This document shows positions 16,280-64,000 of a stretch of 64,000 bases of DNA, piece after piece. The position numbers and the translations under genes were made by a program. The notes beneath the pieces are model-generated. The model saw only the letters and a program-made list of their open reading frames with translations. It did no database searches and had not been told where the DNA came from. This DNA is from Alphaproteobacteria bacterium (GTDB lineage Bacteria; Pseudomonadota; Alphaproteobacteria; JAUHZC01). Numbering within the stretch: position 1 is the stretch's first letter; each line of letters begins with the position of its first letter. The stretch lies in assembly GCA_030425805.1 (NCBI GenBank), contig JAUHZC010000003.1:701-64700 (forward strand), in the 5' to 3' direction.

Positions 16280-16930
16280 ATGTCTACAGTCGATCCCCTC
16301 GTTGAACTTCTCATTCTTGGCGCTATCGTTGCTGCTATTGGATATTTTTACTACAACCTCCTTGGATCCCGTTCTGCTGACGATCCTACGATTGATGAGA
16401 ATGTAGTACCAATTCACCCTGTCCACACGTCAAAAGGAAAAACAGTTGAACCCCAGCTTGAAGATATTAATGTTTCAGGAGATGGGATTTATGTTCTGGA
16501 AGACCACATGCCTGGCTTTAAAAGTCGGGATTTCTTGAGTGGTGCAGAAGCAGCATTCCGTATGATTGTTGAGGCCTTTGCAAAAGGGGACACAAAAACC
16601 CTTAGTACGCTTCTCGGTCCTGAACTTTTGAAGAGCTTTGGTGACTCCATTAAAGAGCGTGAAAAAGCGGGGCATACCCTGGAAGCAAAAGTTGTTCACG
16701 TCAACAAAGCACAAGTTGTGCAAGCCGAGATTAAAAAAGGATTTGCACAAGTTAAAGTTCGTTATGCCACGAGTCAGCTCAATAAACTTACCGATAAAAA
16801 AGGCAAAGTTCTCGAAGAAACTCCTCAAGATAGTTATGATTCAGTAGCAGATTTATGGACGTATCAAAAATCTCTGCGGGATACATCCCCCCACTGGATT
16901 CTTATTCAAACGGAACCCGTTGAGGAATAA
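16280..16930 (+). CDS. Tim44-like domain membrane protein
   Basis: An N-terminal TM helix, then a Tim44-like C-terminal domain. Conserved alphaproteobacterial position upstream of mltA-smr. Confidence 0.75.
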   Translation: MSTVDPLVELLILGAIVAAIGYFYYNLLGSRSADDPTIDENVVPIHPVHTSKGKTVEPQLEDINVSGDGIYVLEDHMPGFKSRDFLSGAEAAFRMIVEAFAKGDTKTLSTLLGPELLKSFGDSIKEREKAGHTLEAKVVHVNKAQVVQAEIKKGFAQVKVRYATSQLNKLTDKKGKVLEETPQDSYDSVADLWTYQKSLRDTSPHWILIQTEPVEE

Positions 16931-16956
16931 CAAAAACGTGAGAGGGAGCCTAAACG

Positions 16957-17817
16957 ATGCAATCCCTTGCAATCCAAAATTGCTTTAGCCACACGCACTC
17001 CGTTCGGAATACACCTCTCTTTTTTTCTGAAAATTTTGTAGAAAATTTAGAAGCAATGTATAAAAAATCTCCTGATCGCTTTTCAGAAGAACCCTCGTTG
17101 CATAGTCTTTTCGAAGTCTTAGAAAAAATTACTCTCCCCACAACTTTTCCAGGAAAACTCACAGGGTACTTTACCCCTTCAATCATCGCCCAGAGACACG
17201 CTGATGAAATTTTTTCCTGGCCTATATGGGGTGCTGTGCCTCAAACATACCATCACCATCCACGAGGATGGTTTTATGAAAACAAAGATCAGCTTTTAGA
17301 TTATGTGCTTTGTTGGGTAAGCTCTCCTGTTGAAGCTTGGCTATGTGATGTGCAAGGTTCTGCCCGAGTTATTCTAGAGGGGCAAGAACAGTGGGTTGGT
17401 CTTTGGGGGCGCAATACCCATCCATATACGAGTATCGGACAGCTCTTCCGAGAACAGGGATACAAAAACATCACAGCACCACAGCTGGTTGAGCTTCTTA
17501 AGGCAGAGGAAAATCCTTGCCAGATTTTAAGTCAAAACGAGAGTCAGATTTTTTTCCAGTGGTCAGAGTCCCCTTATACAGCCCTAGGAATAAAACCTTT
17601 TCCCTTTTCAACAATCGCTGTCGATCCTCAGTTTATTCAGTCCCCAGTTGCCCTTGTTTCCCTTGAAGGATTGCATTTCCTCGCAATCCCAAGTGATATC
17701 GGAAGCGCTATCAAAGGTCCTCATCGGGCAGACCTCTACTGCGGAATTGGTAATGAAGCCTTTAACATTGCAGGAGGATTAAACACCCCTCTTCATCTCC
17801 AAGAGGTATTTCTGTGA
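16957..17817 (+). CDS. mltA: MltA-family lytic murein transglycosylase (MltA/3D domain)
   Basis: The C-terminal 'DLYCGIGNEAFNIAGG' resembles the 3D-domain end of MltA. Conserved Tim44-mltA-smr neighbourhood. The ORF is shorter than a typical MltA, so the N-terminus is uncertain. Confidence 0.55.
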   Translation: MQSLAIQNCFSHTHSVRNTPLFFSENFVENLEAMYKKSPDRFSEEPSLHSLFEVLEKITLPTTFPGKLTGYFTPSIIAQRHADEIFSWPIWGAVPQTYHHHPRGWFYENKDQLLDYVLCWVSSPVEAWLCDVQGSARVILEGQEQWVGLWGRNTHPYTSIGQLFREQGYKNITAPQLVELLKAEENPCQILSQNESQIFFQWSESPYTALGIKPFPFSTIAVDPQFIQSPVALVSLEGLHFLAIPSDIGSAIKGPHRADLYCGIGNEAFNIAGGLNTPLHLQEVFL

Positions 17818-18311
17818 CAAAGAAACCAGCCGACTATGCTCTCTGGCAAGCCTATAAAAGGCGCGTCACGCCCCTGCGCCCTCAAATCGAAACCGAAGAA
17901 TCTCCACAAACCCTTCAAAAAAAGCTTTCATCTTCAACTGCTTTAAACCAGCCAACCCTCCCTCCTGCACGAAAAAAAACATTAGGTTTGCAAAAGCTTC
18001 AATATCCAAAACGTGTAAAAGCCCAAGCTACACTTGATCTCCATGGCATGACCCGGGAAGAAGCCTCTATTGCCCTCCTGCATTTCCTTCGAAAGTCCCA
18101 AGCGATGGATTTAAAGAATGTGCTTGTAATCACAGGAAAGTCAACGAAGAAACATCTTGTGGGAAAAGGGCATGAAACCTTGAGCGGAGCTCTCTTACAA
18201 TGGCTTCAACAACCAACTTTCAAGACCTTGGTTTCTGGATACACACAAGCACCCCGAAATCTTGGAGGAAGCGGTGCTTATTTATTACAACTCCGAAAAA
18301 CTAAGCCTTAG
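17814..18311 (+). CDS. Smr-domain protein
   Basis: C-terminal Smr domain 'LDLHGMTREEASIALLHFLRKSQAMDLKNVLVITGKS'. Confidence 0.75.
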   Translation: MTKKPADYALWQAYKRRVTPLRPQIETEESPQTLQKKLSSSTALNQPTLPPARKKTLGLQKLQYPKRVKAQATLDLHGMTREEASIALLHFLRKSQAMDLKNVLVITGKSTKKHLVGKGHETLSGALLQWLQQPTFKTLVSGYTQAPRNLGGSGAYLLQLRKTKP

Positions 18312-26531: not shown

Positions 26532-26925
26532 TTATTTGCTCACAAACACTTGTGAATAACTTTTCTAATTTTTTAGCCAATTTAAAAATCTATTTGTTTA
26601 TAAGGTATTACTGAATCCTTAACGAGAAACCCTTACTAAATAAAGGTTTATCCTTAAAGTGTTGATTTTGCTTGTTTTTTTGGAATCAATACTTTTTTTC
26701 ATCATAAAACAAAAAAAAATTCTATTAACGTCTTGACATAGAGTATGCCTTGTTTTCCACAAAACCCTGTGGATAACTTTGGGGATAAATCTTGGGATAA
26801 AACCATTCATTTTTTAACCCTCTCTTTTTAAAGGATTTATCAAATCCCAAATCGAAGGGATTAAATCTATTAATGAAAAAAACCTTTTCTTTCTGCAAGG
26901 TTTTTGATATCAATGGGTTCAGTGT

Positions 26926-27945: not shown

Positions 27946-29082
27946 TTACCTTACAGCCCCTCTCAAAAAGGGCTCAGCCCTCACAGATCCCCTTTTAAGA
28001 TAAAGTTGGAAATGCTTACGCTCTGCCTGTGGATCCTGAACAACGATGTGGTCTGGAACAGGGTCAGCATGACAGCGGCAATGATGTTTCTCTCCAGGCA
28101 GGAAATCAGGAGGATTTTCTCTTGAATAGACTTTTCCCTCTCTTTCCAGATGTTCCATCCGCACTTTTTTGTCCATCTTCGTACGCCAGATAAAGTACGC
28201 CTTATTCTTTCCCCACTGATAAGCCTCTTTACCTTGGGATTGAGGGGAGATTCTGGTCTTACCAATCTCTGCCTGCTGGATCCCATAAGAAAGGGCATGT
28301 GTTGGTTTTGTATAAGTCGGGCATTGATAGGAAGCAAGGAGTGCAGCCTCAGCATCCCGGCGATTCTGAAGGCTAGGATCTCGCTTTACATTCGATCGTT
28401 CCTTCACCTCCCTCACCGCACCCTGAAGATAGGAAGTCTTACCCGTTTTGACATAGTTCCGGATAAGTTGGCAGAAAGTTGTTTTTCCATTGGCTAACTC
28501 AGGATGATTAAAATAAAGACTCAAGATTGTCATTTTTTCATTAGCCCGGAGTCTTTTCCAATCAGGACCATAGATATTGCAGACTTCCTGATACCGGGTT
28601 TGGATAGAATCTTTATAAGCCAAGGTGACCTGTTCATCGGTTAGGTTTTTCTCACCATAGTAGACCTTCTTCATCAGACCAGGCTCTTTGAAAAGCTGGT
28701 CATAATAAAGTTGGGTCTTTTCTTCGTTGATGTTTAACCCGATACCGACCGTGCAAATTGGTAATTGTTTATATTTTGCAAAACAAATTTCCTCTAATTG
28801 GTCACGCCTTTCTTGGCCCAAAGCATAGAATTTTTTGGAGGAGATATACTGTGTTTTCTTATCAGGATCTGGAATACCATCCAAATAGGCTTCATTGCGA
28901 CAACCTTCAACGGTGGTGATAAAAAACTTAAGCCGATCGAAAAAAATATCATCCTCTAAATCATGAACACTCTGAGCAGAATAGTTATGTATTGAATCCC
29001 GCAGTATTTCTGAAATCCGGGTTTTTTGACGGTCCCCCAAGAAACTTCCCCTTGTGTTTTTTATAAAGGTAAATTTTCTCAA
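27946..29082 (-). CDS. fusion protein: N-terminal GH24 phage-type lysozyme domain + C-terminal phage MuF/SPP1-gp7-like domain
   Basis: The N-terminus carries the lysozyme catalytic block 'TVEGCRNEAYLDGIPDP...ICTVGIGLNI' (E-G...Y.D..G..T.G.G). The C-terminus carries a MuF-type 'KVRMEHLEREGKVY...PGEKHHCRCHADPV' (R..H..L.G...P..HPNCRC) motif. No signal peptide. Confidence 0.5.
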   Translation of the reverse strand: MRKFTFIKNTRGSFLGDRQKTRISEILRDSIHNYSAQSVHDLEDDIFFDRLKFFITTVEGCRNEAYLDGIPDPDKKTQYISSKKFYALGQERRDQLEEICFAKYKQLPICTVGIGLNINEEKTQLYYDQLFKEPGLMKKVYYGEKNLTDEQVTLAYKDSIQTRYQEVCNIYGPDWKRLRANEKMTILSLYFNHPELANGKTTFCQLIRNYVKTGKTSYLQGAVREVKERSNVKRDPSLQNRRDAEAALLASYQCPTYTKPTHALSYGIQQAEIGKTRISPQSQGKEAYQWGKNKAYFIWRTKMDKKVRMEHLEREGKVYSRENPPDFLPGEKHHCRCHADPVPDHIVVQDPQAERKHFQLYLKRGSVRAEPFLRGAVR

Positions 29083-30760: not shown

Positions 30761-32083
30761 TTATAAAATAAACTTAGAAAGATCAGTCTGCTCTGAAAGA
30801 TGGCCCACCTTCTCTTGAACATAGGCTTCATCAATGGAGACCTTCTCTCCTCCACGATCTGTTGCGGTGAAGCTGATTTCTTCAAGAAGACGCTCCATCA
30901 CCGTTTGCAAACGACGAGCACCGATATTCTCAATATTACGATTAATTTCTACAGCCAATCGTGCCAAGGCCTTAATGGCCCCTTTGGTAAAGGTGAGTGT
31001 GATGTCTTCGGTCTCAAGAAGGGCTGTGTATTGCTTGATCAAGCTAGCCTCAGGTTCTGTGAGGATATGAACAAAATCCTCTTCCGTCAGGGCTTTGAGC
31101 TCCACACGAATGGGGAGACGCCCTTGGAGTTCAGGCAAAAGATCAGCTGGTTTTGCAAGGTGAAAAGCTCCAGAAGCAATAAAGAGGATGTGGTCTGTTT
31201 TCACCATGCCGTACTTGGTGGAAACAACAGTACCCTCAACCAAGGGTAAAAGGTCTCGCTGCACACCCTCCCGGCTAACATCTCCACCCCGGGCATTCAT
31301 ATGACTGCTATGGCAAATCTTATCAATCTCATCTAAAAAGACGATTCCATTTTGCTCCACATCCAGCAGAGCTTCTTTGACAATCTGGTCCTGGTCAATC
31401 AGCTTTTCACTTTCTTCTGTGATCAAGAGTTCCCGAGCTTCAACGACGGTCATTTTCTTGGTCTTCATTGATTTTCCGAAAGCTTTCCCCATCAGATCAC
31501 CCAGGTTCAGCATTCCCATCTGTGCTCCTGGCATTCCTGGAATATCCACAGTTGGCATAGAGGAAGAAGGAACATCCTCAACCTGAATATCAATAGATGT
31601 TTCATCCAGCTCACCCTTGCGGAACTTCAAACGAAATTTCTGACGGGTTTCCGCGCTAGCTTCTTTCCCAACAATAACATCCAGAATACGTTCTTCAGCT
31701 GCGTCCTCTGCTTTGACACGGACTTCCTTACGCCGAATTTCTTTATTTTGCGTGATAGCAACCTCAACCAAATCTCGCACGATTTGTTCTACATCACGCC
31801 CCACGTATCCAACTTCAGTAAACTTTGTTGCCTCGACTTTGACAAAAGGAGCCTGTGCAAGCTTTGCCAAACGCCGAGAAATCTCCGTCTTTCCTACCCC
31901 CGTTGGACCGATCATCAGAATATTTTTTGGCAAAATTTCTTCCCGAAGGTCTGGTTCCACCTGCATGCGACGCCAGCGGTTACGCAAAGCAATAGCAACT
32001 GCTTTTTTGGCCTCACCTTGGCCAATAATATAGCGATCTAATTCAGAGACAATCTCTCGTGGTGTAAATTCTGTAACACGCAT
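30761..32083 (-). CDS. hslU: ATP-dependent protease ATPase subunit HslU
   Basis: Walker A '[21 protein letters not shown]'; I-domain; C-terminal HslU signature. Immediately downstream of hslV. Confidence 0.9.
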
Positions 32084-32094
32084 ACTTCAAATCC

Positions 32095-32646
32095 TTATTT
32101 CGTAGAGAGCGTTTCAAAAACAAAATTATTATTGGTGTAGACACAAATGCCTGCTGCCACATTCATAGAGCGTTCTGCAATCTCACGGGCAGATAAGTCC
32201 ATATCCTGGAGAGCCCGGGCAGCTGAAAGAGCATAGGCTCCCCCACTTCCAATACCAATTAGACCATCTTCTGGCTCAAGAACATCCCCGTTCCCTGTCA
32301 AAATTAGGGATGTCTCACGATTTGCTACAGCCATCATGGCTTCAAGTCTACGGAGGTATTTATCTGTTCGCCAGTCCTTAGCCAATTCAACACAGGCCCG
32401 GGTCAATTGCGTGGGATACTGCTCAAGCTTTGCCTCAAGGCGCTCAAATAAGGTAAATGCATCAGCCGTTGCTCCTGCAAATCCAGCAATGACAGACCCA
32501 TCTCCAAGAGGGCGAACCTTCTTGGCATTTGACTTAATCATCTGATCTCCAAGAGTAACCTGGCCATCTCCACCGATCACGACTTGGTCTCCTTTGCGAA
32601 CAGACAAAATTGTAGTTCCGCGCCAACTCTCCACTGTATCCCCCAT
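32095..32646 (-). CDS. hslV: ATP-dependent protease subunit HslV
   Basis: '[21 protein letters not shown]' N-terminal Thr protease signature. Confidence 0.9.
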
Positions 32647-32693
32647 GATAAATCCTCTAGTATGGTCTTATTTTATTGAAAGGCTGAAGTCAA

Positions 32694-33047
32694 ATGTATG
32701 ATACCACAAATGTCTTTTGGAAAATTCTCGAAGGAGACATTCCTTGCACCCCAATCTACGAAACAGATCATATTTTTGTCTTTCCAGACATTGCACCCAA
32801 ACGAAAGATCCATCTTCTCTGCATCCCCAAAGGGAAATACACTGATTTCTCTGACTTCACTAAGAATGCCACAAAAGACGAGATCCAAGGATTTTGGAAA
32901 GGTGTTCAGGACGTTATTCGCTCTCACAACCTTGAAGACCAGGGATATCGTATTATTTCAAATATGGGATCTCAAGGAGGGCAGGAAGTGCCTCATTTTC
33001 ACATTCATATTCTTGCAGGAGAACCTGTGGGGCCTTTGGTAGCCTAA
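32694..33047 (+). CDS. HIT-family (histidine triad) hydrolase
   Basis: 'QEVPHFHIHILAG' HxHxHxx motif. Confidence 0.8.
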   Translation: MYDTTNVFWKILEGDIPCTPIYETDHIFVFPDIAPKRKIHLLCIPKGKYTDFSDFTKNATKDEIQGFWKGVQDVIRSHNLEDQGYRIISNMGSQGGQEVPHFHIHILAGEPVGPLVA

Positions 33048-42134: not shown

Positions 42135-44825
42135 TTAGCGATGCTTTTCAAAAACCATTACGATTTCTGTTCCCTGGTCAGGTTGAGACCGGACTCTCAT
42201 TTCCCCCTGAGAGAGATCAATGATTTCTTTACAGTATGAGAGTCCAATTCCCATCCCTGAGGATTTTGTTGTAAACATTGGGTCAAATATATTCTCAAGA
42301 ACGTCTGGCTGCATCCCAGGACCATTGTCCTGTATTGCGACAACAACCTTATCCTCATCAACTTCAATTTCGATCTCAATTCGAAGCTGAGAGCCCCTGC
42401 GTCCTTGCCCACAAAAAGCCTCATAAGCGTTTTTGAACAGGTTATGCATGACCTGAATCATAGCTGATTTATGGGTAGAAATCAGAGCATCTTGTATCAG
42501 GCCCTTTAGGATAAAGATCTCCCCCTTTTCTTCAGGCGGGAGAGGATAAATATCGATAGCCTCTCGAAGAATATCCCCGATATTTTCTTTGTGAACAAAA
42601 AGTTCTTTGTTTGTTCCCTTCAACTGCCTGATTGAGAGCTGTTGAATCTGGGAAATGCGTGTCACTGTATTTCCAATTTCCTCGATATTTTTCTGCAACC
42701 CTTCAACATCTTCCTTGCTGCCCTTAATTTCAACCTTCTTTGCAATATTTTTAAGAGAAAATACACGCATTCCTAGGGTTGATAGAGGCGTAGAAAGCTC
42801 ATGAGAAATATAATTTGCTTGGTATTTTTCAAGCTGTTTTGCTGAAAACTCATCCCCCTCTTTTTTTCGAGAGAAGACCATTCCCATGAGGGATGAAAAA
42901 ATAATACTGAAAACAAAAAGTAAAATATCATTAGATGCGAAATCGAAACAGCTTCCTCCGCATAAAAGAATATACAAACCAAAGGCAAGTAGGCTCCCAC
43001 CTGCAAAAAGAATCATAAAAACACGCCAAGAGACGAGGAGAGCCATGAGAAAAAGCCCCAAAGTTAAATTTGTGAGCCCGAATGTATCTAGGTTTCCTAG
43101 AAGACCCTGCACCATCAAAGTGAAAGGAAGCGTTATCATGACAGTGAAATGCCAATAGGCTGTGAAATACCGCAAAAGACTCTTTGGCCAATATCCTTTT
43201 AGCAAGAGGAGAACACAGAGAAAGCCAGAAAATAGCTTGAGAAAAATCATCTCACCAGAAACCAGAGTTGATTTTTGGATCCACATGAAATTCGGCGCAA
43301 TGTAGACACACAGCACAAAAACGGAAAAGCCTGTAGCTGGAAGCCATTCTAACCTAGCTGGATTGAGAATTTCAGAAAAAGAAGGCTTCTTTTTGCTCGA
43401 CTCTCTTTGGATTCTTATGATTTTTTTCTGTGATTCAGGTGCAAACCTAGATTTTGGCTCGAAAAAAAAAAATCGCGTGAAGAAAACTACTGCGTTTCCT
43501 AGCATTCCAACAATAAAACCTGGAACATATGTTAAATCCACAAGATTCAAAACATCCCAAATGATAAAAGAAACAATCCCCCCGAGTACTGCATAAAGAA
43601 AGGTTTTCTCTGAAACTTTGATTCCAAAAATTGCAGCATAAAGCGGAACAACAGCAACTGGACTCCAAAAGCTCATGAAATAGACCATGATACTCAGGAT
43701 ATCCTTGAAAATGAGCGCAATAGCCATAGCAAAAAGAGCTGCAGAAGGAGTAAAAATCCAAATCCAGTTCCGCATACGCTTTTCATCTGATCTTGTTTTT
43801 TCTTTTAATCCAAGAACATCCCCCAAGAAAGTGGAAGTACTTAAGTTCAGAGCAGAGTCTGCAGATGACATAATAACAGCCATGAGGCCTGAGGCCGCAA
43901 TCCCCTTTACACCTATAGGCAAAAACTCTGAAATAAGATGAGGAAAGGCGAGCTTGGAATCAATATTTGGAAAAATAATATAGGCTGCAATCCCAATTAA
44001 CCCAATAAAGAAAAAGAAAGGAAACTCCAGAATTGCCGTCAAAATCATTGATTTAGACATTTGCTTAGGTCCCCGTGAAATGAAAAACCTGTGCAAAATT
44101 AGAGGGTTTAAAATCGGTAAGAATTGAGCAAAGAAATACGTTAGAAGAAGCCCTGTATCTGCTTTTGTATGTACAAAAGAATAGTGCGTTTCAGGGATTT
44201 GAGAAAAGAATTTTTGATATCCCCCAAAGTAGTCTAGCAAAAACATGCAAACTGAAGGAACGCTCACAACGATGAAGCAAAATTGCAAAACGTCCGTGAA
44301 CACAACAGCACGAACCCCCCCAAACATTGTATAAAAAAGAACGATTCCCACACTGAAAAGAACACCGAGATTAAAGGGAATATTTAAAAAATATTGAAAA
44401 ACAAATCCCATTGCTGAAACTTGTAATGCAAATGTTCCAAGGGTCTTAATAAGCGCACTTAATCCAATAATTTTCTTAGCATACTGACCATAAGCCTTTG
44501 CCCCCATATCCCCAGGAGTCATACATCCATGGAATCTTCCCATCTTGGGAATGACAACAACACCGAGAAATAAATCAGCAAATGCCTGCAGTGCTACAAG
44601 AATAAGGATAGGGTAACCGTACTCAAAAACACGGGTAGAAAGCCCTAGACTTGATCCGCCCCCCAACCAAGTAGCTGCCGTTGTACAAACAAGGACGGGA
44701 AGTGAAAAATTGCGATCTGCGACAGAGAAATCTTTTAAGGACTCAACTTTCTTGCCTCTTACAATAGCTACCCACAAGGTGCCGAGAAGAAATAATCCGA
44801 TAATACCTAAGTCAATATTGTGCAT
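42135..44825 (-). CDS. hybrid sensor: sodium:solute symporter (SSF) domain fused to histidine kinase (HisKA + HATPase_c)
   Basis: ~12-13 TM helices of SSF type in the N-terminal ~600 aa. H-box 'ISHELSTPLSTL'; N/G boxes 'HNLFKNAYEAF', 'QDNGPGM', 'GMGIGLSYC'. Confidence 0.8.
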   Translation of the reverse strand: MHNIDLGIIGLFLLGTLWVAIVRGKKVESLKDFSVADRNFSLPVLVCTTAATWLGGGSSLGLSTRVFEYGYPILILVALQAFADLFLGVVVIPKMGRFHGCMTPGDMGAKAYGQYAKKIIGLSALIKTLGTFALQVSAMGFVFQYFLNIPFNLGVLFSVGIVLFYTMFGGVRAVVFTDVLQFCFIVVSVPSVCMFLLDYFGGYQKFFSQIPETHYSFVHTKADTGLLLTYFFAQFLPILNPLILHRFFISRGPKQMSKSMILTAILEFPFFFFIGLIGIAAYIIFPNIDSKLAFPHLISEFLPIGVKGIAASGLMAVIMSSADSALNLSTSTFLGDVLGLKEKTRSDEKRMRNWIWIFTPSAALFAMAIALIFKDILSIMVYFMSFWSPVAVVPLYAAIFGIKVSEKTFLYAVLGGIVSFIIWDVLNLVDLTYVPGFIVGMLGNAVVFFTRFFFFEPKSRFAPESQKKIIRIQRESSKKKPSFSEILNPARLEWLPATGFSVFVLCVYIAPNFMWIQKSTLVSGEMIFLKLFSGFLCVLLLLKGYWPKSLLRYFTAYWHFTVMITLPFTLMVQGLLGNLDTFGLTNLTLGLFLMALLVSWRVFMILFAGGSLLAFGLYILLCGGSCFDFASNDILLFVFSIIFSSLMGMVFSRKKEGDEFSAKQLEKYQANYISHELSTPLSTLGMRVFSLKNIAKKVEIKGSKEDVEGLQKNIEEIGNTVTRISQIQQLSIRQLKGTNKELFVHKENIGDILREAIDIYPLPPEEKGEIFILKGLIQDALISTHKSAMIQVMHNLFKNAYEAFCGQGRRGSQLRIEIEIEVDEDKVVVAIQDNGPGMQPDVLENIFDPMFTTKSSGMGIGLSYCKEIIDLSQGEMRVRSQPDQGTEIVMVFEKHR

Positions 44826-45021: not shown

Positions 45022-47592
45022 ATGTCATATATCGACCTTTCAATTGTGGCTCTTTATTTGATAGGGACATTTATTGTTGGCCTATACTATGGAAAAAGAG
45101 AAGGCAAGTCATTACAACAGTTTGCGACAGGGAATAAAGACTTCTCCGTTCCCCTCATTGCAATCACTATCTTTGCAACCCTAACGGGTGGAAATAACGT
45201 TCTTGGAAATTCTGAGAAAGGATTTCGATACGGCATCATCTTTTATCTGATTGTCTTTGGAGATCCCGTCTACCGGTTGATTATGGCAAAATATTTTGCA
45301 CCACGATTTAGTCGTTTTCGTGACTGTATCTCTGCAGGTGACATCTTAGATAAAAGCTTCGGAAGGTTGGGGCGATGCATTGCTGGGGTTGCTGCTTTCA
45401 TGAAGTGCTCAGGAAGTGTAGCAGCTCAAATTGCAGGGCTCAGCATTGTACTTCAATACATGTCAGGAATTGATTACTTTACAGGTCTTGTGATCGTCAC
45501 ATTCCTCACAATTGCCTACTCTGCTTTTGGGGGAATCACCTCTGTTGTCTTCACAGACGTCATTCAGTTTGTAGCTTTGATTATTGCTGTTCCGCTTGTC
45601 TCAGCTCTCGCTGTTCATAAAGCGGGAGGCGCAAACGTTGTTTTTGAAACAACATTCATCACAAAGCCAGATTTCTCTTTTGAAGATGGAAGTTTTATTT
45701 TCACAATCTTCATGATCTACTGCATTCCAGAACTAAACCCTGTTTTGCTACACCGTCTTCTCATCTCCAGGAATCTTCGTTTCCTCTCTGCTTCTCTCCG
45801 GGCAGCAGCAGCCTTAGCGGTTCCTTTTGGCCTCGTTATGGCTTTGTTAGTAGGATCAGCATATATTCTTGATCCCACCATTGAGCCTAAGAGTGTTTAT
45901 CCGTACCTGATTGATACAATTCTGCCTGTAGGCTTGAAAGGAATTGCTATTGCAGGACTATTTGCAATTCTAATGTCAACAATTGACTCCTTTTTAAACA
46001 CAGCCTCTGTTGCCTTTGCCCAGGATATCTTGGAAGGATTTTTTCCCAAAAAGTTTAATGATCAAACCAAGAAGAAATATGCGCAGTCTACAACTGTAAT
46101 CATTGGTGCGATTGGTTTTTACATAGCAACTCAGTACAACAGCATTGTTTCAATTTTTCTTTTCTCAATGGAATTGTGGGTTCCACTTATGGTTGCTCCT
46201 CTCTATAGCGTAATCTTCAGATATAATGCGACTCAAAAAGATCTAATTTTTTCCTGTCTTGGGGGTGTTGTTGCACTTTACTCTGTAAAATTCAGCCCTC
46301 TTGGAAAAATCCCAGGATTAACTGTTTTTGCTGCATACTTAGGTAGCTTTTTAATGATGTTCAGGAGGGCACTGACATTTAAAAACCTAAAGGAGCTGCT
46401 GACACGACCTGCACGCCCAAGATCAATTGCTCTTGCAGAGAAAAAACGATACATCGTTCCCCAAAATATAGATGCCTTCTGCATTTTGATTGTTTTCTTC
46501 TATGCATTTTCTCCCTTCCTAGGAATCTACGAAAATAAAAATCTACTTTGGCTAGGAATGCATGTCTTGGGAGTTTCTTCTGCTCTTGCTCTCTTCTTTG
46601 GCCGACGTAATAACTTCAGCTTTAAACCTCTTATTCAGCCTTTTGTTATTATGACAGGAGCTCTCATACCTTTCTTAATGGTCCATGTTAGTGGAAAATT
46701 GGAAACACTCTTCTTTATCATGCCAATCTTCCTCTATTTTTCCTCCATGATTGCCTTTAGTAAGTTTTTTCAAGGAATTGCTTTTAGTTTCACGCTTTCT
46801 AAGTTTGTAACTTATTACTATATCGGTCTTCCTGGACTTGGGGCTTTTTATGAAGTTGCTTTTCTCTCAACTGTTCTCATAAGTGGATTTTTTATCTCTC
46901 GTTTAACATTCCACAACCCAAGAGAACGTTATCAAGGTGCTGCTATTGCTATTTCAGAAATTGCCCATGAAGTCAGAACACCCCTCCAATCAATTGCTGT
47001 TGATTTTGGAATGTTAATTGAAGAACTTGGTATTGGTAAAAAAGAGTCTCCAAATCCACTCATTGGAAAAATATATCACAAGCTTAATACCGTATTCTCT
47101 TCTCTGGAACTTATTCTTCAAACCTTCCGAAAAGACGATAAAAATGATCAATATGAAATTATTAATCTGAGTAATCTTTTGCAAAATATCATTGAACAGT
47201 ACTCATTTCCCAAAGATGTCCACGTTACAATTGATGCTCAGTGCCAGAATCTTCACGTCAAAGGTGATGAAGCCGCGCTCCGTGGAGTCTTTTTAAACCT
47301 TATCAAAAATAGTGTTGAGGCTCAGTATGGGCAGGATAAAAAAGAGGTTAATCTCACTTTGAAACAATCTGCAAACTATGCAACAATCTTTGTTGAAGAT
47401 CGAGGTCCTGGTGTAGATCTCAAAGACTCAGAAGTCATTTTTGAGCCTTTCTACACCACAAAGAAATCTGGCACGGGGGTTGGTTTGAGCTACTGCTTAA
47501 AAATTATTCAAAATCAATCAGGTTCTATGTTCTATGAACCACGTCCTGGAGGAGGCGCTCGATTTGTCGTCCAGTTACCTGTGGGGTCATAA
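45022..47592 (+). CDS. hybrid sensor: sodium:solute symporter (SSF) domain fused to histidine kinase
   Basis: SSF-type polytopic N-terminus. H-box 'ISEIAHEVRTPLQSI'; 'LNLIKNSVEA', 'EDRGPGVD', 'GTGVGLSYC'. Divergent from the first SSF-HK across an AT-rich 196-bp region. Confidence 0.8.
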   Translation: MSYIDLSIVALYLIGTFIVGLYYGKREGKSLQQFATGNKDFSVPLIAITIFATLTGGNNVLGNSEKGFRYGIIFYLIVFGDPVYRLIMAKYFAPRFSRFRDCISAGDILDKSFGRLGRCIAGVAAFMKCSGSVAAQIAGLSIVLQYMSGIDYFTGLVIVTFLTIAYSAFGGITSVVFTDVIQFVALIIAVPLVSALAVHKAGGANVVFETTFITKPDFSFEDGSFIFTIFMIYCIPELNPVLLHRLLISRNLRFLSASLRAAAALAVPFGLVMALLVGSAYILDPTIEPKSVYPYLIDTILPVGLKGIAIAGLFAILMSTIDSFLNTASVAFAQDILEGFFPKKFNDQTKKKYAQSTTVIIGAIGFYIATQYNSIVSIFLFSMELWVPLMVAPLYSVIFRYNATQKDLIFSCLGGVVALYSVKFSPLGKIPGLTVFAAYLGSFLMMFRRALTFKNLKELLTRPARPRSIALAEKKRYIVPQNIDAFCILIVFFYAFSPFLGIYENKNLLWLGMHVLGVSSALALFFGRRNNFSFKPLIQPFVIMTGALIPFLMVHVSGKLETLFFIMPIFLYFSSMIAFSKFFQGIAFSFTLSKFVTYYYIGLPGLGAFYEVAFLSTVLISGFFISRLTFHNPRERYQGAAIAISEIAHEVRTPLQSIAVDFGMLIEELGIGKKESPNPLIGKIYHKLNTVFSSLELILQTFRKDDKNDQYEIINLSNLLQNIIEQYSFPKDVHVTIDAQCQNLHVKGDEAALRGVFLNLIKNSVEAQYGQDKKEVNLTLKQSANYATIFVEDRGPGVDLKDSEVIFEPFYTTKKSGTGVGLSYCLKIIQNQSGSMFYEPRPGGGARFVVQLPVGS

Positions 47593-50643: not shown

Positions 50644-51279
50644 ATGAGGCTTAAGTTTAATATAGAAAAGGAATTTATAGTTCAATTCCAAAAATATTCG
50701 ACTTTGGAGGTTGTCTATAAAGGTGAGCAGGGTACTGGAAGGTGCGTTATCACTCTCCCAGGCAGCGAAAGGATCTGCGATGCTTGCTCACACTCTCTTC
50801 TTAAAACGGTTGGAGAAATAAGCGAAATCACCTTCGAAAGCACTGCTCTTCAAAATTTTGAAGAAAAGCATAAAATCTACTTTGAGGCTCTCAGTCTCGG
50901 AGATATGGATGTTTTGCATGAAAATCCAGAGATTCTTGATAATTATGCAAGTCTACAACTTGATTGCTGGAAATCTTTTCTGTCTTCTCTTTATAAATTT
51001 ATCGAGAATTATTGGCCCAATCAGAAAAAAAGAGGCTGGGTCATTACATCTTCTGAGATGGATATCCTCTTTTTAAAGAATGCTTCCCCTCTTCTGTGTG
51101 GAGATCAATTCACTTATATTGATAAAAAGAAGAAAGAGGTTTTTGTCTCTGTCGTCGTAAATACGCAAAAAACAGATCCAAAAGTCGTTAACATTTCTTA
51201 TCCAACGCTGGAAGAGCGTCAGAAATTTGTTCCAAATTCCAAGGTCATTATGCCGAATGGGGCTATAAAGCCCCTTTAA
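50644..51279 (+). CDS. hypothetical protein
   Basis: 211-aa ORF with no recognisable domain, flanked by AT-rich intergenic DNA. Coding status supported only by its length. Confidence 0.35.
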   Translation: MRLKFNIEKEFIVQFQKYSTLEVVYKGEQGTGRCVITLPGSERICDACSHSLLKTVGEISEITFESTALQNFEEKHKIYFEALSLGDMDVLHENPEILDNYASLQLDCWKSFLSSLYKFIENYWPNQKKRGWVITSSEMDILFLKNASPLLCGDQFTYIDKKKKEVFVSVVVNTQKTDPKVVNISYPTLEERQKFVPNSKVIMPNGAIKPL

Positions 51280-52163
51280 AGAACTTTTTCTGTTCCGTCA
51301 TTCACAATAGAAAGGAAACGGTCTAATTCTTCAAAAGAATTAAACTGAATTTCGATCTTCCCCCCTTTACCCTCTGATTTTAGGCCAACCGGGAGATTGA
51401 GTTGCTCAGAAAGCGTTTGAGCAATTTGCCCTAACTCTCCCTGAGGAAGTTCATCAGATCGTGATGAAGTCTGCGCTCTTGTCTTTGATTTTTGCTTTTC
51501 AGGATTTTGGCAAAGGGCTTCTGTTTGCCGCACATTCAATCCCTGACGAATCACAGTCTTTGCTGCTTCTTCAGGATGAGGATGTCCAAGAAGGGCCCGG
51601 GCATGCCCCGCAGAGAGTTTTCCCTCTCTCACAAAGATTTTCAAAGCTTCTGGCAAATTCTGAAGACGAAGAAGGTTTGCGATATGGCTACGGCTTTTCC
51701 CAAGAATTTTTGAAAGTGTTTCTTGGGTATAAGAAAACTCTTCCATCAATCGCTGATACCCCAAAGATTCTTCCATAGGATCAAGATCTTCACGCTGGAT
51801 ATTTTCCAACAAAGCCATCTCAAGGCTTTGTTTGTCATCTAAATCTTTGATAACGATTGGAACTGTTTCAAGCTGTGCGAGCTTTGAAGCCCGCCATCGA
51901 CGCTCCCCAGCTATAATTTCATATCGATCCCCAAGTTCTCGCACGACTATGGGCTGAATAACCCCATTTTCTTTGATAGAATCTGCAAGCTCTTGCAAAG
52001 CTGTTGGAGCTATGGTTTTTCGTGGCTGATATTTTCCAGGAATCAACCGATCGAGGCTTACCTCTTTCAATTGGTCTTTTTCCTGGGGAAGATCAGGTCC
52101 CAAAAGGGCTGAAATTCCTTGTCCCAAGGGTTTTTTCTTAAGCGACCTGACTGTGGTGACCAT
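51276..52163 (-). CDS. parB: chromosome partitioning protein ParB
   Basis: 'IAGERRWRAS' ParB box and an HTH region. Downstream of parA. Confidence 0.9.
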   Translation of the reverse strand: MVTTVRSLKKKPLGQGISALLGPDLPQEKDQLKEVSLDRLIPGKYQPRKTIAPTALQELADSIKENGVIQPIVVRELGDRYEIIAGERRWRASKLAQLETVPIVIKDLDDKQSLEMALLENIQREDLDPMEESLGYQRLMEEFSYTQETLSKILGKSRSHIANLLRLQNLPEALKIFVREGKLSAGHARALLGHPHPEEAAKTVIRQGLNVRQTEALCQNPEKQKSKTRAQTSSRSDELPQGELGQIAQTLSEQLNLPVGLKSEGKGGKIEIQFNSFEELDRFLSIVNDGTEKVL

Positions 52164-52917
52164 GTGACATACCTCTTATTTTGTGAAGAATCTCTTTCGC
52201 CAGGCGAATATAAGCCATGGATCCATGGGATTTTACATCATAAACCATCACGGGCAAACCATGGGAAGGAGCTTCTGAAACCCTTGTACTCCGAGGGATT
52301 TTTGAGTCAAAAAGATGCTCTGGAAAATAGGAACGAACTTCTTCTTCAACATGCTGTGCAAGGGCATTGCGGCTATCATACATGGTGAGAATGATCCCCA
52401 GAATCTCAAGATCTGGGTTATAGTTGTTGTGAATCCGCCGGAAAGTTCGCAGAAGCTGCGTCATTCCCTCTAGAGCAAAAAACTCAGCTTGGAGAGGAAT
52501 TAAAATATATTGGGAGGCAATGAGAGCATTAATTGTCAAAAATCCAAGTGAAGGAGGACAATCAAAAATCACAAAGTCAAAATCATGCCCATTTAAAATC
52601 TTTTTCAAGACATACAACCCCTCATCTACGTGAGGAAGCTCCACTTCAGAAGCTGAGAGATCCTGGGTTGAGGGCAAAACATACAAATTCGGAACTGAAG
52701 TTGAAACAACAGATTCTGAGAGTGTTTGCTCTCCTGTGATGACCTGATAAACACCTCCTCGGCGTTCTGAGGCAGAAATACCAAGGCCTGTACTTGCATT
52801 TCCCTGGGGGTCTAAGTCAATCAACAAGACACGCTTATTGATCGCCGCCATTGCGGTCGCAAGATTAATTGCTGTTGTCGTCTTTCCAACGCCACCCTTT
52901 TGGTTGGCAATCGTCAT
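52138..52917 (-). CDS. parA: chromosome partitioning ATPase ParA
   Basis: Deviant Walker A 'ANQKGGVGKTTTAINLA'. The start is taken at the internal ATG (MTIANQKGG), which avoids an overlap with rsmG. Confidence 0.9.
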   Translation of the reverse strand: MTIANQKGGVGKTTTAINLATAMAAINKRVLLIDLDPQGNASTGLGISASERRGGVYQVITGEQTLSESVVSTSVPNLYVLPSTQDLSASEVELPHVDEGLYVLKKILNGHDFDFVIFDCPPSLGFLTINALIASQYILIPLQAEFFALEGMTQLLRTFRRIHNNYNPDLEILGIILTMYDSRNALAQHVEEEVRSYFPEHLFDSKIPRSTRVSEAPSHGLPVMVYDVKSHGSMAYIRLAKEILHKIRGMSHGHHSQVA

Positions 52918-52922
52918 TACTG

Positions 52923-53552
52923 TCACGTAGCTTGCTCCCCGGGTTTCAAATTCCACACCTTTATTATAGTCGTATGAAAAAGAGAAGAAAGAGAAGACTT
53001 CTCATAAGAAAAAGAAAATTTCTCTTGGGCTTGCTGAACCTCTTCATCCACGCGGCTTCCCTTGAGAAAAAAACCTGTCATGGTATCTTTCCACTGAGGC
53101 TTTAAAAAATCAAAAATTGTCTCCAGTGATGCAAACCCACGAGCTGTAAACTGGGCATTCTCTGGGTAGGACACTGTTTCAACACGCTGATTGATAACAT
53201 GAACATTGCAAAGGTTAAGGCTCCGAATCACCATTTCAAGGAAATCACATTTTTTCTGGGTTCTTTCCACGAGATAAACATTCTCAAGCCCCAAAATTCC
53301 TAGGATAAGCCCTGGAAATCCAGCACCTGAGCCTAAATCATAAGTGGGTCGTGTAGGATCTAACTCTGCAATCAATGGCACACAATTAAGAATATGGCGC
53401 TCCCACAGAGCATCAAGATCCTTCAAGGACACCAGATTATATACAGTTGCCCACTTTCTCAAAAGTTTTTCAAAAGCCTCCAGATCATCCAAGACATGGG
53501 ATGTGTCTCGGATGGCGTAGGATTTCAGAAGCTTTTCGTATTTCCTATCCAT
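52923..53552 (-). CDS. rsmG: 16S rRNA (guanine527-N7)-methyltransferase RsmG (GidB)
   Basis: SAM-binding '[15 protein letters not shown]'. Classic position upstream of parAB. Confidence 0.85.
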
Positions 53553-54804
53553 TCATGGAATCAAAGAAATCATCGTTTGATTTTGTGAACTTAATCTTAT
53601 CCAATAGGAATTCCATTCCATCAGCAGGACCCATAGGATCCAAAATCCGACGGAGGACCCACATCCGAGAAAGCCTCTCTTTTCCAACGAGAAGCTCATC
53701 CTTACGGGTTCCAGAGCGTGTAATATCAATGGCAGGGAAGATGCGCTTATCAGAAAGCTTACGGTCCAGAACAATTTCAGAGTTACCTGTTCCCTTGAAC
53801 TCTTCGAAAATCACCTCATCCATACGGGAACCTGTTTCGATCAAGGCTGTTCCGATGATGGTCAAAGACCCCCCCTCTTCCACATTTCGGGCTGCACCAA
53901 AAAGACGTTTTGGACGCTGAAGGGCATGGGCATCAACACCTCCTGTAAGAACCTTTCCAGAGGAAGGAACACAGGTGTTATAGGCACGGGCTAAACGGGT
54001 GATAGAATCAAGGAGGATGACAACATCCTTTTTATGCTCAACAAGACGCTTTGCCTTTTCAATCACCATTTCAGAAACCTGAACATGTCGGCTTGCAGGC
54101 TCATCAAAGGTTGAGGAAATGACTTCTCCCTTAACGGAGCGAATCATGTCTGTCACTTCTTCTGGACGTTCATCCACAAGTAAAATAATCAAATGGACTT
54201 CAGGGTGATTCTTCTCAATAGCCTTTGCGAGCTCCTGAAGCATCACTGTTTTTCCTGTCCGAGGCGGCGCTGTCAAAAGAGCCCGTTGACCTTTTCCAAG
54301 AGGAGCGACCATATCAATGACCCGTGTCACTGCATGAGGATTGTCTCCCTCAGGCTCAATCTCCAGCTTTAGCTGATCTTGTGCAAAAAGCGGTGTCAGG
54401 TTATCAAAATTCAAACGATGACGGCTTTTTTCAGGCTCTTCAAAGTTAATTCTTGTGACACTTGTGAGTGTAAAGTAGCGCTCTCCCTCTTTCGGAGCAC
54501 GCATCTCTCCCTCGACGGTATCTCCTGTGCGAAGGCTATACTTGCGCACAATTTTAGGAGAAACATAAATATCGTCCGCACCTGGAAGATAGTTTGCACC
54601 CGCAGAACGGAGAAAACCAAACTGATCTTGAAGAAGCTCAATCACTCCACCCCCATAAATGGGATCTCCGCGCTCAGCGTGGGTTTTTAAGATTTCCACA
54701 ATCATATCTTGCTTGCGCAAATTGGAGGATTCTTCAATATTAAGAGACTCGGCTAGAGCCAAGAGCTCCGTCGGGCTTTTCGCCTTAAGATCTTGTATGT
54801 TCAT
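53545..54804 (-). CDS. rho: transcription termination factor Rho
   Basis: N-terminal '[24 protein letters not shown]'; CSD RNA-binding region; Walker A '[12 protein letters not shown]'; 419 aa. Confidence 0.9.
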
Positions 54805-61519: not shown

Positions 61520-62516
61520 AGCAACACTCCTTGTATTTTGAGGGACAGACACGCTTAAAAGACTCGCTTGTTCTGACAAGATCCGCAAGTGTTTTGATAA
61601 AAGCAGGGTGAGCCCCCGAAACAGGAACCCGATGATACTCAGGGACACCTTTTTTCTCTGCTAGCTCTCGATACTCGACGTCCAGCTCCACAAGGGTCTC
61701 AGAATGGTCAGAAACGAACGCCAGAGGCACAACGACCAATCCCAGCCCCCCTTGTCCTGCTTTTTCGATCTCGGCGTCTGTATAGGGCTCTATCCACTTC
61801 TGAGGACCCACCCGACTTTGGTACGTCACAACCCAATCGAACCTTGGGTGCTTTTTTTCAACCTCCGCCGCAATGGCTGCTGCTGTCTGCTCAACCTGCC
61901 ATTGGTAGGGGTCTCCTTTGTTGATAATTGACTCTGGAAGCCCGTGAGCTGAGAACAAAACCCGCACCCTTCCTTTTGCTTGGTCTAGCGCCTTAATCAA
62001 CGGCTCAGCATAAGAAGCGATAAAGCCTGGTGCCGTTGGGTAACAGCAAGGAACCAGGAGCGGGACACCTCCAAGCCCCTCACCCTGGAGCGCTTCTTTC
62101 CACTCTTTCAGAGAAGACCCGGACGTTGTTGTCGAGAACTGTGGGTAGAGAGGGAGAGCCACGATCCGATCTGGCTGGTAGTCCCGCACCTCTTTTACAA
62201 CCTCTGCTGCCCGGGGGTGCCAGTACCGCATCACGATAAAGACTTTGTGCCCCTCCCCCAGCTCTTTCTCCAGGGCCCTCGCCTGAGCCTGGGTGTTCTC
62301 AAGAAGAGGGGAGCTCCCACCAAGCTGCTCATAGATCTCGGCAGCCTCTTTTTCGCGGCGTGATGAGATGAGCTTTGCAGCAAACCAGCGGAGAGGACGT
62401 GGTAAAGGAAAAATGGCGGGGTCAAAAAAAAGGTTGAACAAAAAGGGTTTCACGGAAGAAGGGTTATCAGGTCCCCCTAAGTTAAACAAAACAACCGCTG
62501 TTCTTGTCTTTGTCAT
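61512..62516 (-). CDS. hemH: ferrochelatase
   Basis: 'VVLFNLGGPD' N-terminus, 'PQFSTTTSGS', 'SAHGLPES'. 334 aa. Confidence 0.9.
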   Translation of the reverse strand: MTKTRTAVVLFNLGGPDNPSSVKPFLFNLFFDPAIFPLPRPLRWFAAKLISSRREKEAAEIYEQLGGSSPLLENTQAQARALEKELGEGHKVFIVMRYWHPRAAEVVKEVRDYQPDRIVALPLYPQFSTTTSGSSLKEWKEALQGEGLGGVPLLVPCCYPTAPGFIASYAEPLIKALDQAKGRVRVLFSAHGLPESIINKGDPYQWQVEQTAAAIAAEVEKKHPRFDWVVTYQSRVGPQKWIEPYTDAEIEKAGQGGLGLVVVPLAFVSDHSETLVELDVEYRELAEKKGVPEYHRVPVSGAHPAFIKTLADLVRTSESFKRVCPSKYKECCCG

Positions 62517-63535
62517 GATGCCTCCCGCACGTAAGAAATAAAGGCCTCAACATGTTTGGGGGGGGTGTTAGGCACAACGCCATGCCCTAGGTTCATGATG
62601 TGGGGGCGGCCCTTGAAGGCCTTTTTGTAGCGCTGAACCTCCTGGCGCAAAATCTCCCCCCCGACCACCAAGGCCTGAGGATCCACAGCCCCCTGAACAG
62701 GAACGCCCTTTCCTAGCCTCTGGTTCACGGCTTCTGGGTTCATTGTGTAGTCAAGGCCAACAGCATTCACACCTGTCTTCTTCACATAATCGACGAGATG
62801 CTCCCCCATTCCCCGAGGGAATCCAATGATCGGCACTCCTGGACAGGCTAAGCGTACCCGATCAACGATTTGCTTTGTTGGCCCAAACACAAAGGGCTCG
62901 AGTCCCCCATAAGGACAAGCCCCGCCCCAGGACTCAAAGATCTGAAGCACAGAAGCTCCTGCCTTGGCCTGAGCCACAAGGTGTGTTGACAGCGCATCTA
63001 CAAGCAGCTCCATCAAAGCCTCCATCTCCTGGGGACGGGAAAGGGCAAAGTGACGCACACCGTCATGAGCTTTGGATCCTCGGCCTTCAACCATATAGCA
63101 AGCCAGGGTCCAGGGCGCTCCACAAAACCCAATAAGATCTTTCTCAGCCCCGATTGCCAAACGCGCCAACTCTACGGCCTCATACACAGAGGCAAGAGCC
63201 TGGGGATCATACTTGAGCCGAGGGACCTGTAAGGGGCCAAGCTGGGGGCCCTCTCCCCGAACAAAGGAAACGTCTTGACCCATCGCGTGAGGAATCACGA
63301 GAATGTCTGAGAAAATGATGGCTGCGTCTAAGTCAAATCGCCTCATGGGTTGAAGTGTGATCTCCGTTGCAACCTTGGGGGTGTAGCATGCTTCTAAGAA
63401 GCTTGCTTGGGTTTGGCGAAGCTCCCTATACTCGGGAAGATACCTCCCAGCTTGGCGCATAAGCCAAACAGGGGGAGCCCCGTCTTTTTTACCGGCAAGG
63501 GTTTGACAAAGGTTACCCATTTCTTTTGATACCAT
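62513..63535 (-). CDS. hemE: uroporphyrinogen decarboxylase
   Basis: 'PPVWLMRQAGRYLPEY' N-terminal signature. 340 aa. Confidence 0.9.
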   Translation of the reverse strand: MVSKEMGNLCQTLAGKKDGAPPVWLMRQAGRYLPEYRELRQTQASFLEACYTPKVATEITLQPMRRFDLDAAIIFSDILVIPHAMGQDVSFVRGEGPQLGPLQVPRLKYDPQALASVYEAVELARLAIGAEKDLIGFCGAPWTLACYMVEGRGSKAHDGVRHFALSRPQEMEALMELLVDALSTHLVAQAKAGASVLQIFESWGGACPYGGLEPFVFGPTKQIVDRVRLACPGVPIIGFPRGMGEHLVDYVKKTGVNAVGLDYTMNPEAVNQRLGKGVPVQGAVDPQALVVGGEILRQEVQRYKKAFKGRPHIMNLGHGVVPNTPPKHVEAFISYVREAS

Positions 63536-63875
63536 TAATAATATATTAAAAAATTGTAATAGTAGTATGGCTGGGGATCATGGGGATTCAAGGAAAAAGA
63601 TATCCCCACCCCAAAAAAACAAAAACCCGTGGAAAAAGGGGAGAGATTCATGAGGCCTAGAAAGAGCCTTCTTTTCTCGAGGCGCTCTTTTGGGGGGAAC
63701 TCTGTGGATGAGCTGGGGGTAACTTTTTTGGCACTGAATCAAAGGGGTGTGGATAACTTGCGGATAAAAAACCAAGAGCGGGTGTGTATTTTTACACTTT
63801 TGGAGTGCACACAGAGATCTCCCCGGTTTTATCCACAGCCTTGACCCCCTTGCATCTCTCCATTACATCTATCAT
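63536..63875. other. putative chromosomal replication origin (oriC/Cori) between hemE and a dnaQ-like gene
   Basis: The 340-bp non-coding region contains DnaA boxes: perfect TGTGGATAA at 63748-63756, perfect TTATCCACA at 63829-63837, TGTGGATGA at 63703-63711 and a partial 'GGATAAA' at 63762-63768. A TTAA-N7-TTAA (CtrA-box-like) lies at 63535-63549. Adjacency to hemE is the conserved alphaproteobacterial Cori context, and parAB-rsmG lie ~10 kb away. Confidence 0.5.
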
Positions 63876-64000
63876 ATGAGAGAAATCGTTCTAGATACCG
63901 AAACCACAGGTCTTCGTTTTGACGAGGGACACCGCCTTGTTGAGATTGGGGCTGTGGAAATTGTGAATCTTGTCCCTACCGGGAAGACGTATCACGTTTA
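63876..64000 (+). CDS. dnaQ: DNA polymerase III epsilon-like 3'-5' exonuclease (5' fragment, runs off window)
   Basis: '[29 protein letters not shown]' Exo I motif of DnaQ-like exonucleases. Confidence 0.65.

Follow-up and report, generated by a model that had tools for sequence, protein, structure and literature searches.

The DNA analysed here is a stretch of 64,000 nt (the window) from an uncultured alphaproteobacterium, and the element in question is the intergenic spacer between hemE and dnaQ (63536–63875; 340 bp, 43.5% G+C), past which the window extends for 125 bp. This spacer is very probably the chromosomal replication origin of the bacterium, of the hemE-linked type represented by Caulobacter, Rickettsia and Wolbachia. 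The left boundary gene, hemE (uroporphyrinogen decarboxylase; 62513–63535, minus strand), matched TIGR01464 (E = 2e-107, 359 bits), and the right boundary gene, dnaQ (DNA polymerase III epsilon; 63876–64000, plus strand, cut by the window end), matched PRK05711 (E = 1.8e-15 over the first 41 codons). These family matches confirmed both genes between which an earlier, sequence-only reading of this DNA had placed a predicted origin of the oriC/Cori type. The two genes diverge from the spacer in their transcription; hemE leads a hemE-hemH-hemJ run, and hemH, hemJ, rluD and rpoH are the next genes on the same strand. Family matches also located parB-parA-rsmG-rho at 51276–54804 on the minus strand, and parAB, rsmG and rho thus lie within the distance of ~12 kb that the earlier reading had given. 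By gene content and order, the arrangement parB-parA-rsmG-rho...hemJ-hemH-hemE, followed by dnaQ across the spacer, is the conserved alphaproteobacterial origin cluster.

Origins linked to hemE have been established in Caulobacter and predicted in the Rickettsiales, including Rickettsia, Wolbachia, Ehrlichia and Anaplasma (PMC1914354, PMC6393856). The locus was compared with the in silico criteria of Ioannidis et al. (2007, PMC1914354), after Brassinga et al., which ask for a spacer adjacent to hemE (or COG1806) and for several DnaA boxes within it. In the window, hemE directly abuts the spacer, and several boxes were found there.

DnaA boxes in the hemE–dnaQ spacer

DnaA boxes were identified by a 9-mer pattern search and by direct reading, with the E. 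coli-type sequence TTATCCACA taken as the perfect box. The spacer contained two perfect boxes, two boxes with one mismatch and four with two mismatches, giving eight boxes with at most two mismatches. One perfect box, TTATCCACA on the plus strand at 63829–63837, lies 39 bp upstream of the dnaQ start, at the distal end of the array, and is inverted relative to most of the others. The second reads TGTGGATAA at 63748–63756, that is, TTATCCACA on the minus strand, and points toward hemE. It stands in tandem with the one-mismatch box TTATCCGCA (63759–63767, minus strand), which points the same way across a 2-bp gap. The other one-mismatch box reads TGTGGATGA at 63703–63711 (TCATCCACA on the minus strand) and forms a similar tandem, again with a 2-bp gap and both members directed toward hemE, with the two-mismatch box TTACCCCCA (63714–63722, minus strand). 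Weaker boxes with two mismatches were present at 63628–63636 (TTTTCCACG, minus strand, toward hemE), at 63600–63608 (ATATCCCCA, plus strand, in the opposite orientation) and at 63572–63580 (TGATCCCCA, minus strand). The last of these is joined without a gap by GAATCCCCA (63581–63589, minus strand), a box with three mismatches, and both point toward the trios described below. The two perfect boxes in opposite orientation and the one-mismatch box at 63703 were therefore present as the sequence-only reading had stated; the motif GGATAAA, which it had called partial, was also there, but proved to be part of the full one-mismatch box TTATCCGCA.

Six of the eight boxes have the TTATCCACA orientation on the hemE-sense strand and so face the A/T-rich end of the spacer. 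There are three tandem pairs in all (63759/63748 and 63714/63703 with 2-bp gaps, 63581/63572 without a gap), and the segments 63703–63722 and 63748–63767 repeat each other directly over 20 nt. In the 340 bp, four boxes had no more than one mismatch, compared with 0.09 expected from the rate in the window outside its two box-rich spacers (Poisson P = 2.7e-6, or ~5e-4 after correction for 188 windows). Perfect boxes numbered three in the 64-kb window against 0.67 expected, and two of the three lie inside the hemE–dnaQ spacer, 73 bp apart. The box density of the spacer is thus above background, as the earlier reading required of an origin, yet a second spacer, at 26532–26925, scores the same. Because of this equal score, motif counts alone do not identify the origin.

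AT-richness was limited to the 40 bp next to hemE (G+C 0.225), and the lowest-GC 40-mer of the spacer begins at 63536. Sites for CcrM (GANTC) numbered three in the spacer, close to expectation. Scanning of the spacer for promoters and terminators gave nothing that exceeded chance, and a search of the spacer for plasmid similarity found none.

The unwinding module and CtrA-type site beside hemE

Written on the hemE-sense strand, the 55 bp next to hemE are GAATCCCCA-TGATCCCCA-GCC-ATA CTA CTA TTA CAA-TTTTTTAATATATTATTA. The two adjacent weak boxes are followed by a GC spacer (63569–63571; GCC), by a DnaA-trio-like run (63554–63568, plus strand) that reads 3'-TAT GAT GAT AAT GTT-5' away from the boxes, and by a pure A/T tract of 18 bp, TAATAATATATTAAAAAA (63536–63553), which abuts the hemE start codon. 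Experimentally validated modules from Bacillus, Staphylococcus and Synechococcus are available for comparison (supplement of Pelliciari et al., 2021, PMC8287927). Their top strands read TTATCCACA-AATCCACA-GGCC-CTACTATTACTTCTACTA-TTTTTTATA in B. subtilis, TTATCCACC-AATCCACA-GCAC-CTACTACTATTACTA in S. aureus and TTTTCCACA-TTTTCCACA-GCCC-CTACTACTACTG in S. elongatus, with GGCC, GCAC and GCCC as the equivalents of the GCC found here. The module beside hemE is like all three in the order and orientation of its parts, in a spacer of 3–4 bp and in the 12 bp that separate the upstream box and the first trio. A 10-mer, CTACTATTAC, is common to its trio run and to the B. subtilis and S. aureus modules. 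The A/T tract is placed as is the AT-rich element after the trios in the B. subtilis module, and it is likely to be the first-melting part of the DNA unwinding element.

The rules of Pelliciari et al. (2021) call for a box with at most two mismatches located 0–16 bp from the trios, an optional adjacent box with at most four mismatches, and at least three consecutive 3'-NAN-5' trios, ideally GAT. The corresponding parts at the hemE end were TGATCCCCA at 63572–63580 on the minus strand (two mismatches, 3-bp spacer), GAATCCCCA at 63581–63589 on the minus strand (three mismatches, no gap, 12 bp to the first trio) and 3'-TAT GAT GAT AAT-5' on the plus strand at 63557–63568. A stricter pattern, consisting of a box with at most two mismatches, a spacer of at most 16 bp and three consecutive [C/T]TA trios, had two matches in both strands of the window (128 kb) against 0.1 expected, the other match being inside the tssF coding sequence. 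Judged by its sequence, the trio run of the hemE spacer is unusually clean.

The module as a whole is conserved in four related loci (L165, L091, L092 and L163), with a core ATCCCCATGA...CACA, a GC spacer, a CTAC-rich run of 3-nt periodicity and an A/T tract. A sequence model was built from these four loci only, with the window excluded. It gave one significant match in the window, at 63534–63590 on the minus strand (23.6 bits, E = 3.6e-6), and the next best match reached 10.5 bits. When the model was run outside this close group, the module was not detected. The element occurs directly upstream of hemE (63534–63590 in the window, ~9900–9975 in L165, and likewise in L091, L092 and L163) in distantly related lineages whose hemE products are 42–49% identical. 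At this position, sphingomonad-like loci have another periodic run, CATCATCTTTCATCATCC, and Rickettsiales-like loci read ..CACAGCCCTAATAAAA... Bulk predictions of box-trio modules exist for alphaproteobacterial origins, one of them inside the Wolbachia hemE spacer (PMC8287927).

The A/T tract also holds a single copy of the CtrA-type consensus TTAA-N7-TTAA, TTAATAATATATTAA, at 63535–63549, a putative site that overlaps the hemE start codon by one base. The TTAA-TAATATA-TTAA element that the sequence-only reading described at the hemE start was accordingly located. One copy in the spacer compares with 0.02 expected from the spacer composition, and copies with one mismatch were absent from it; over the whole window the motif was not enriched (2 compared with 2.2 expected). 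The site recurs at the same position in Paracaedimonas L163, 24 bp from the hemE start, and none was found in the four other closest relatives. The CtrA part of the earlier reading, with its single site in the A/T tract, is weaker than was stated there. Upstream of hemE in the alphaproteobacterial loci compared below, 16 copies were found against 2.3 expected, mostly in AT-rich Rickettsiales-like loci. The ctrA gene was not seen among the ~50 of 63 window open reading frames (ORFs) that were annotated. Control of the origin by CtrA through binding at this motif is a plausible possibility.

The hemE start codon (CAT, 63533–63535) directly adjoins the pure A/T tract, and there is no Shine-Dalgarno sequence. 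A second in-frame ATG is located at 63518–63520, five codons downstream of the annotated start. Either translation of hemE does without a standard leader, or it begins in fact at the downstream ATG, in which case the A/T-rich element gains 15 bp.

Replication direction, related loci and alternative explanations

GC skew of the plus strand was negative in 30 of the 32 2-kb bins of the window, with a mean of -0.064. At third codon positions, the skew was -0.13 for genes on the plus strand and -0.16 for genes on the minus strand, on both sides of 26.7 kb. Since third-position skew agrees in sign between plus-strand and minus-strand genes, the skew is linked to replication, and coding-strand bias was ruled out as its source. 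The forks cross the whole window from right to left, and the origin is therefore at or beyond the right end of the window. Expressed in hemE orientation, the skew of 0.064 matches the sign and size of that on the hemE side in relatives.

The comparative panel consisted of 166 hemE loci obtained by hemE similarity searches of species-representative genomes, metagenomes and the protein database. Loci were assigned to the Alphaproteobacteria by record titles and the pattern of hemE similarity, an assignment to be read with caution for metagenome contigs, and the controls include gamma- and betaproteobacteria. The scans of species-representative genomes and metagenomes revealed no relative closer than ~49% in hemE, and the best matches, from short contigs in the protein database, were 53–56% identical. 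Two or more DnaA boxes were found in the 450 bp upstream of hemE in 24 of 37 alphaproteobacterial loci and in 5 of 119 others (Fisher 2e-14). Among the loci with long flanks, a switch of the skew from negative to positive fell exactly on the hemE start in 19 of 24 alphaproteobacterial loci compared with 5 of 76 others (Fisher 1e-11). In Paracaedimonas acanthamoebae (L163/L164) the backbone is the same, with parB-parA-gidB-rho-hemJ-hemH-hemE followed by the spacer and by coaE-dnaQ-secB. The layout of boxes in the nearest relatives is also alike, with a far inverted perfect box and forward boxes ~180–220 bp from hemE; L162 and L163 are loci in which the distal inverted box is a perfect one. The hemE-linked origin proposed by the sequence-only reading is in agreement with the gene neighbourhood, the box enrichment, the polarity of the skew, the skew switch and boxes of the relatives and the conserved module.

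Several findings weigh against this conclusion. Only 125 bp of the window remain beyond the spacer, and the skew switch or minimum at the site, which the published criteria also include, is outside the view. The spacer as a whole is not AT-richer than the window (G+C 0.435 versus 0.439), which departs from the published AT criterion, and its pure A/T tract is short, with 18 bp before the coding sequence begins. An IHF binding site is another of the published criteria; the exact consensus WATCAANNNNTTR was not found in the spacer, where there were two one-mismatch matches only. The published criteria (PMC1914354) also ask that no other spacer of >300 bp carry comparable sites, whereas the spacer at 26532–26925 does so within the window and ties with or beats the hemE spacer on box count and AT content. 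As to the module, the formal published definition is permissive, and 63 boxes of the window pass it. The strict three-trio pattern occurred in just 1 of 37 alphaproteobacterial loci, most relatives lacking three consecutive [C/T]TA trios; on this count the claim of conserved perfect trios was dropped, and the alignment and profile model were relied on instead. Finally, the alphaproteobacterial modules in the published survey are computational and mostly weaker, with 3–4 trios (PMC8287927).

An explanation by transcriptional control would assign the boxes to DnaA-dependent regulation of divergent hemE and dnaQ promoters, make the conserved element a promoter or leader, and place the origin to the right of the window. 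DnaA doubles as a transcription factor, with boxes also found in promoters (PMC5742627). At 63829 a perfect box is close to the dnaQ start, the conserved element is where a hemE promoter or leader would be, and the skew places the origin only at or to the right of 63.5 kb. However, eight boxes in oriented tandem pairs far exceed what is known from DnaA-regulated promoters, the skew of relatives switches at the equivalent spacer, and the conserved element is the same as the validated unwinding modules base for base in key parts. A promoter role would, moreover, be compatible with an origin, as the Caulobacter hemE promoter lies inside the origin and is required for replication (PMC6393856). We consider regulation without an origin at this spacer improbable.

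The second DnaA-box cluster, which the sequence-only reading overlooked although it is equally significant, occupies the 394-bp spacer between olsA and tRNA-Asn (26532–26925, 28% G+C). Its boxes number seven when two mismatches are allowed and four when one is allowed. The box at 26753 on the plus strand faces three boxes in one direction at 26768 (perfect), 26780 and 26792, spaced 12 bp apart, and further boxes are located at 26551, 26595 and 26648. The spacer also has an exact IHF consensus, a 40-mer with 12.5% G+C and a 23-nt direct repeat (26541–63 / 26758–80), and it has a 12-mer, TGTGGATAACTT, in common with the hemE spacer. If this were the real origin, the hemE spacer would be a secondary DnaA-binding site; its box count, three-box run, exact IHF consensus and low G+C speak for this, and in motif count and AT content the second cluster equals or exceeds the hemE spacer. 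Nevertheless, no change of skew sign was detected there with 1-kb bins, nor with third codon positions to its left and right, and the flanking genes are co-directional rather than divergent, with neither hemE nor a gene of the origin cluster adjacent. No unwinding module was found in it, the relatives' model scoring 7.4 bits (E = 0.46) and the strict box-trio pattern having no match. The homologues of trhO were too conserved for choosing relatives, and two other trhO loci that were sampled had neither synteny nor the cluster, so that the arrangement is not kept beside trhO in them. An origin at 26532–26925 is for these reasons highly improbable.

Plasmid similarity of the second cluster was confined to the tRNA gene, and its Rfam matches were tRNAs only. 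The orientation pattern of its boxes is like that of the E. coli DARS core, and its combination of boxes, an IHF site and a tRNA neighbourhood is like that of datA. With two DnaA-box arrays 37 kb apart, it is conceivable, although we think it unlikely, that the hemE array fires while the second titrates or recharges DnaA in the manner of datA or DARS, or is a second origin that lies dormant. To our knowledge, no DnaA-regulatory DNA locus of the datA/DARS kind has been described in the Alphaproteobacteria. In this class, control is ascribed to HdaA, proteolysis and CtrA. An ORF at 27946–29082 on the minus strand, a short way downstream of tRNA-Asn and trhO, has a weak head-morphogenesis domain like that of phage Mu F / SPP1 gp7, with a Pfam score at the cut-off; it may be the remnant of a mobile element near the second box cluster.

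A chance concentration of motifs in an ordinary spacer was effectively refuted by the box statistics, with two perfect boxes 73 bp apart, by the enrichment of boxes beside the same gene in the panel and by the relatives' model with its conserved module, even though short degenerate motifs are common and the window holds 25 boxes with at most one mismatch against 14.6 expected.

Other gene groups of the window were recorded in addition. Tim44/TimA-MltA-Smr (16280–18311) and hslU-hslV-HIT (30761–33047) are on the hemE side of the origin, with Smr and hslU ~12 kb apart and the second DnaA-box cluster in between. In Paracaedimonas L163 (3084–7847), both groups lie across the origin from hemE, immediately following coaE-dnaQ-secB and with their relative strands unchanged, which suggests a rearrangement across or near the origin. 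The type VI secretion baseplate genes tssF and tssG (13416–16240) adjoin the Tim44-family gene, and a 605-residue ORF before tssF (11534–13351) had no family match. Two divergent paralogous genes, at 42135–44825 on the minus strand and 45022–47592 on the plus strand, have a sodium/solute-symporter domain fused to a sensor histidine kinase. This pair is located in a stretch of lower G+C (0.38–0.41, ~42–52 kb) and is followed by several ORFs without a family match.

Proposed initiation and comparison with known origins

What was observed directly comprises the motifs with their enrichment, the genes around the spacer, the polarity of the skew, the conserved module and the pattern in relatives. 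From these the following course of initiation is proposed, in which DnaA binding, the site of unwinding and any CtrA control are predictions from the sequence. DnaA would first occupy the strong boxes at 63748, 63829 and 63703, which lie centrally and toward the dnaQ end of the spacer. Each strong box of the hemE-pointing array has a weaker partner 2 bp off, and DnaA might spread cooperatively along the three same-direction pairs toward hemE. The last pair (63572–63589) would be the platform of a basal unwinding system (BUS), from which an oligomer of DnaA-ATP could extend across the 3-bp GC spacer onto the GAT-type trios of the plus strand (63554–63568). The oligomer would then open the A/T tract at 63536–63553, and probably the first bases or codons of hemE too, for helicase loading, and leftward forks would replicate the whole window. 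If the organism has CtrA, its binding at the single site in the A/T tract could block melting and silence the origin, as in Caulobacter. Transcription of hemE would start inside the origin and pass through the unwinding element, because there is no room for a separate promoter between the module and the start codon.

The assignment would fix the origin and the direction of replication for a poorly sampled alphaproteobacterial lineage, with its nearest hemE relatives at 53–56% identity, and would be of use for orienting the genome, for estimating growth rate from metagenomic coverage and for skew-based checks of assemblies. The layout at the hemE end, a Firmicute-style module of boxes, spacer, trios and A/T tract that several related lineages share and with which a CtrA-type site overlaps here, offers a concrete, testable model for the place of melting in such origins and for the way in which CtrA could prevent it.

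Compared with the BUS of B. subtilis (PMC6669920, PMC8287927, PMC10721633), the predicted hemE-proximal module is alike in having two adjacent boxes directed toward the trios, a GC spacer, GAT/AAT trios on the same strand and an A/T tract beyond them, and the 12 bp between the upstream box and the first trio are the modal spacing. It differs in that both platform boxes are weak (two and three mismatches; CCCCA in place of CCACA), that four trios have the conserved central base compared with 6–9 in Firmicutes, and that the module abuts the coding gene hemE rather than lying in a dnaA-dnaN spacer. E. coli oriC likewise has an array of boxes in one direction toward the unwinding element (PMC5742627), strong and weak boxes paired with 2-bp gaps, and an opposite box at the far end, whereas the hemE–dnaQ spacer has different flanking genes and lacks 13-mer repeats, GATC clusters and, from the first box to the unwinding element, a clear IHF site.

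Relative to Caulobacter Cori and the Rickettsiales origins, the second boundary gene is dnaQ and not duf299/COG1806 or COG1253, with coaE intervening in Paracaedimonas, and the spacer lacks an exact IHF consensus and an overall AT-richness. Caulobacter also differs in that its boxes are only weak and moderate, compared with two perfect E. coli-type 9-mers here, and in that its origin has five CtrA sites (PMC1914354, PMC6393856) compared with one CtrA-type site in the window. In common with these origins, the locus has hemE as a boundary gene, a spacer of 300–400 bp with several DnaA boxes, an AT-rich element and TTAA-N7-TTAA at the hemE end, parAB, gidB/rsmG and rho nearby, and a hemE gene whose transcription has to cross the origin. 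The locus is thus the usual place of the origin for the group, and nothing in it departs from current models.

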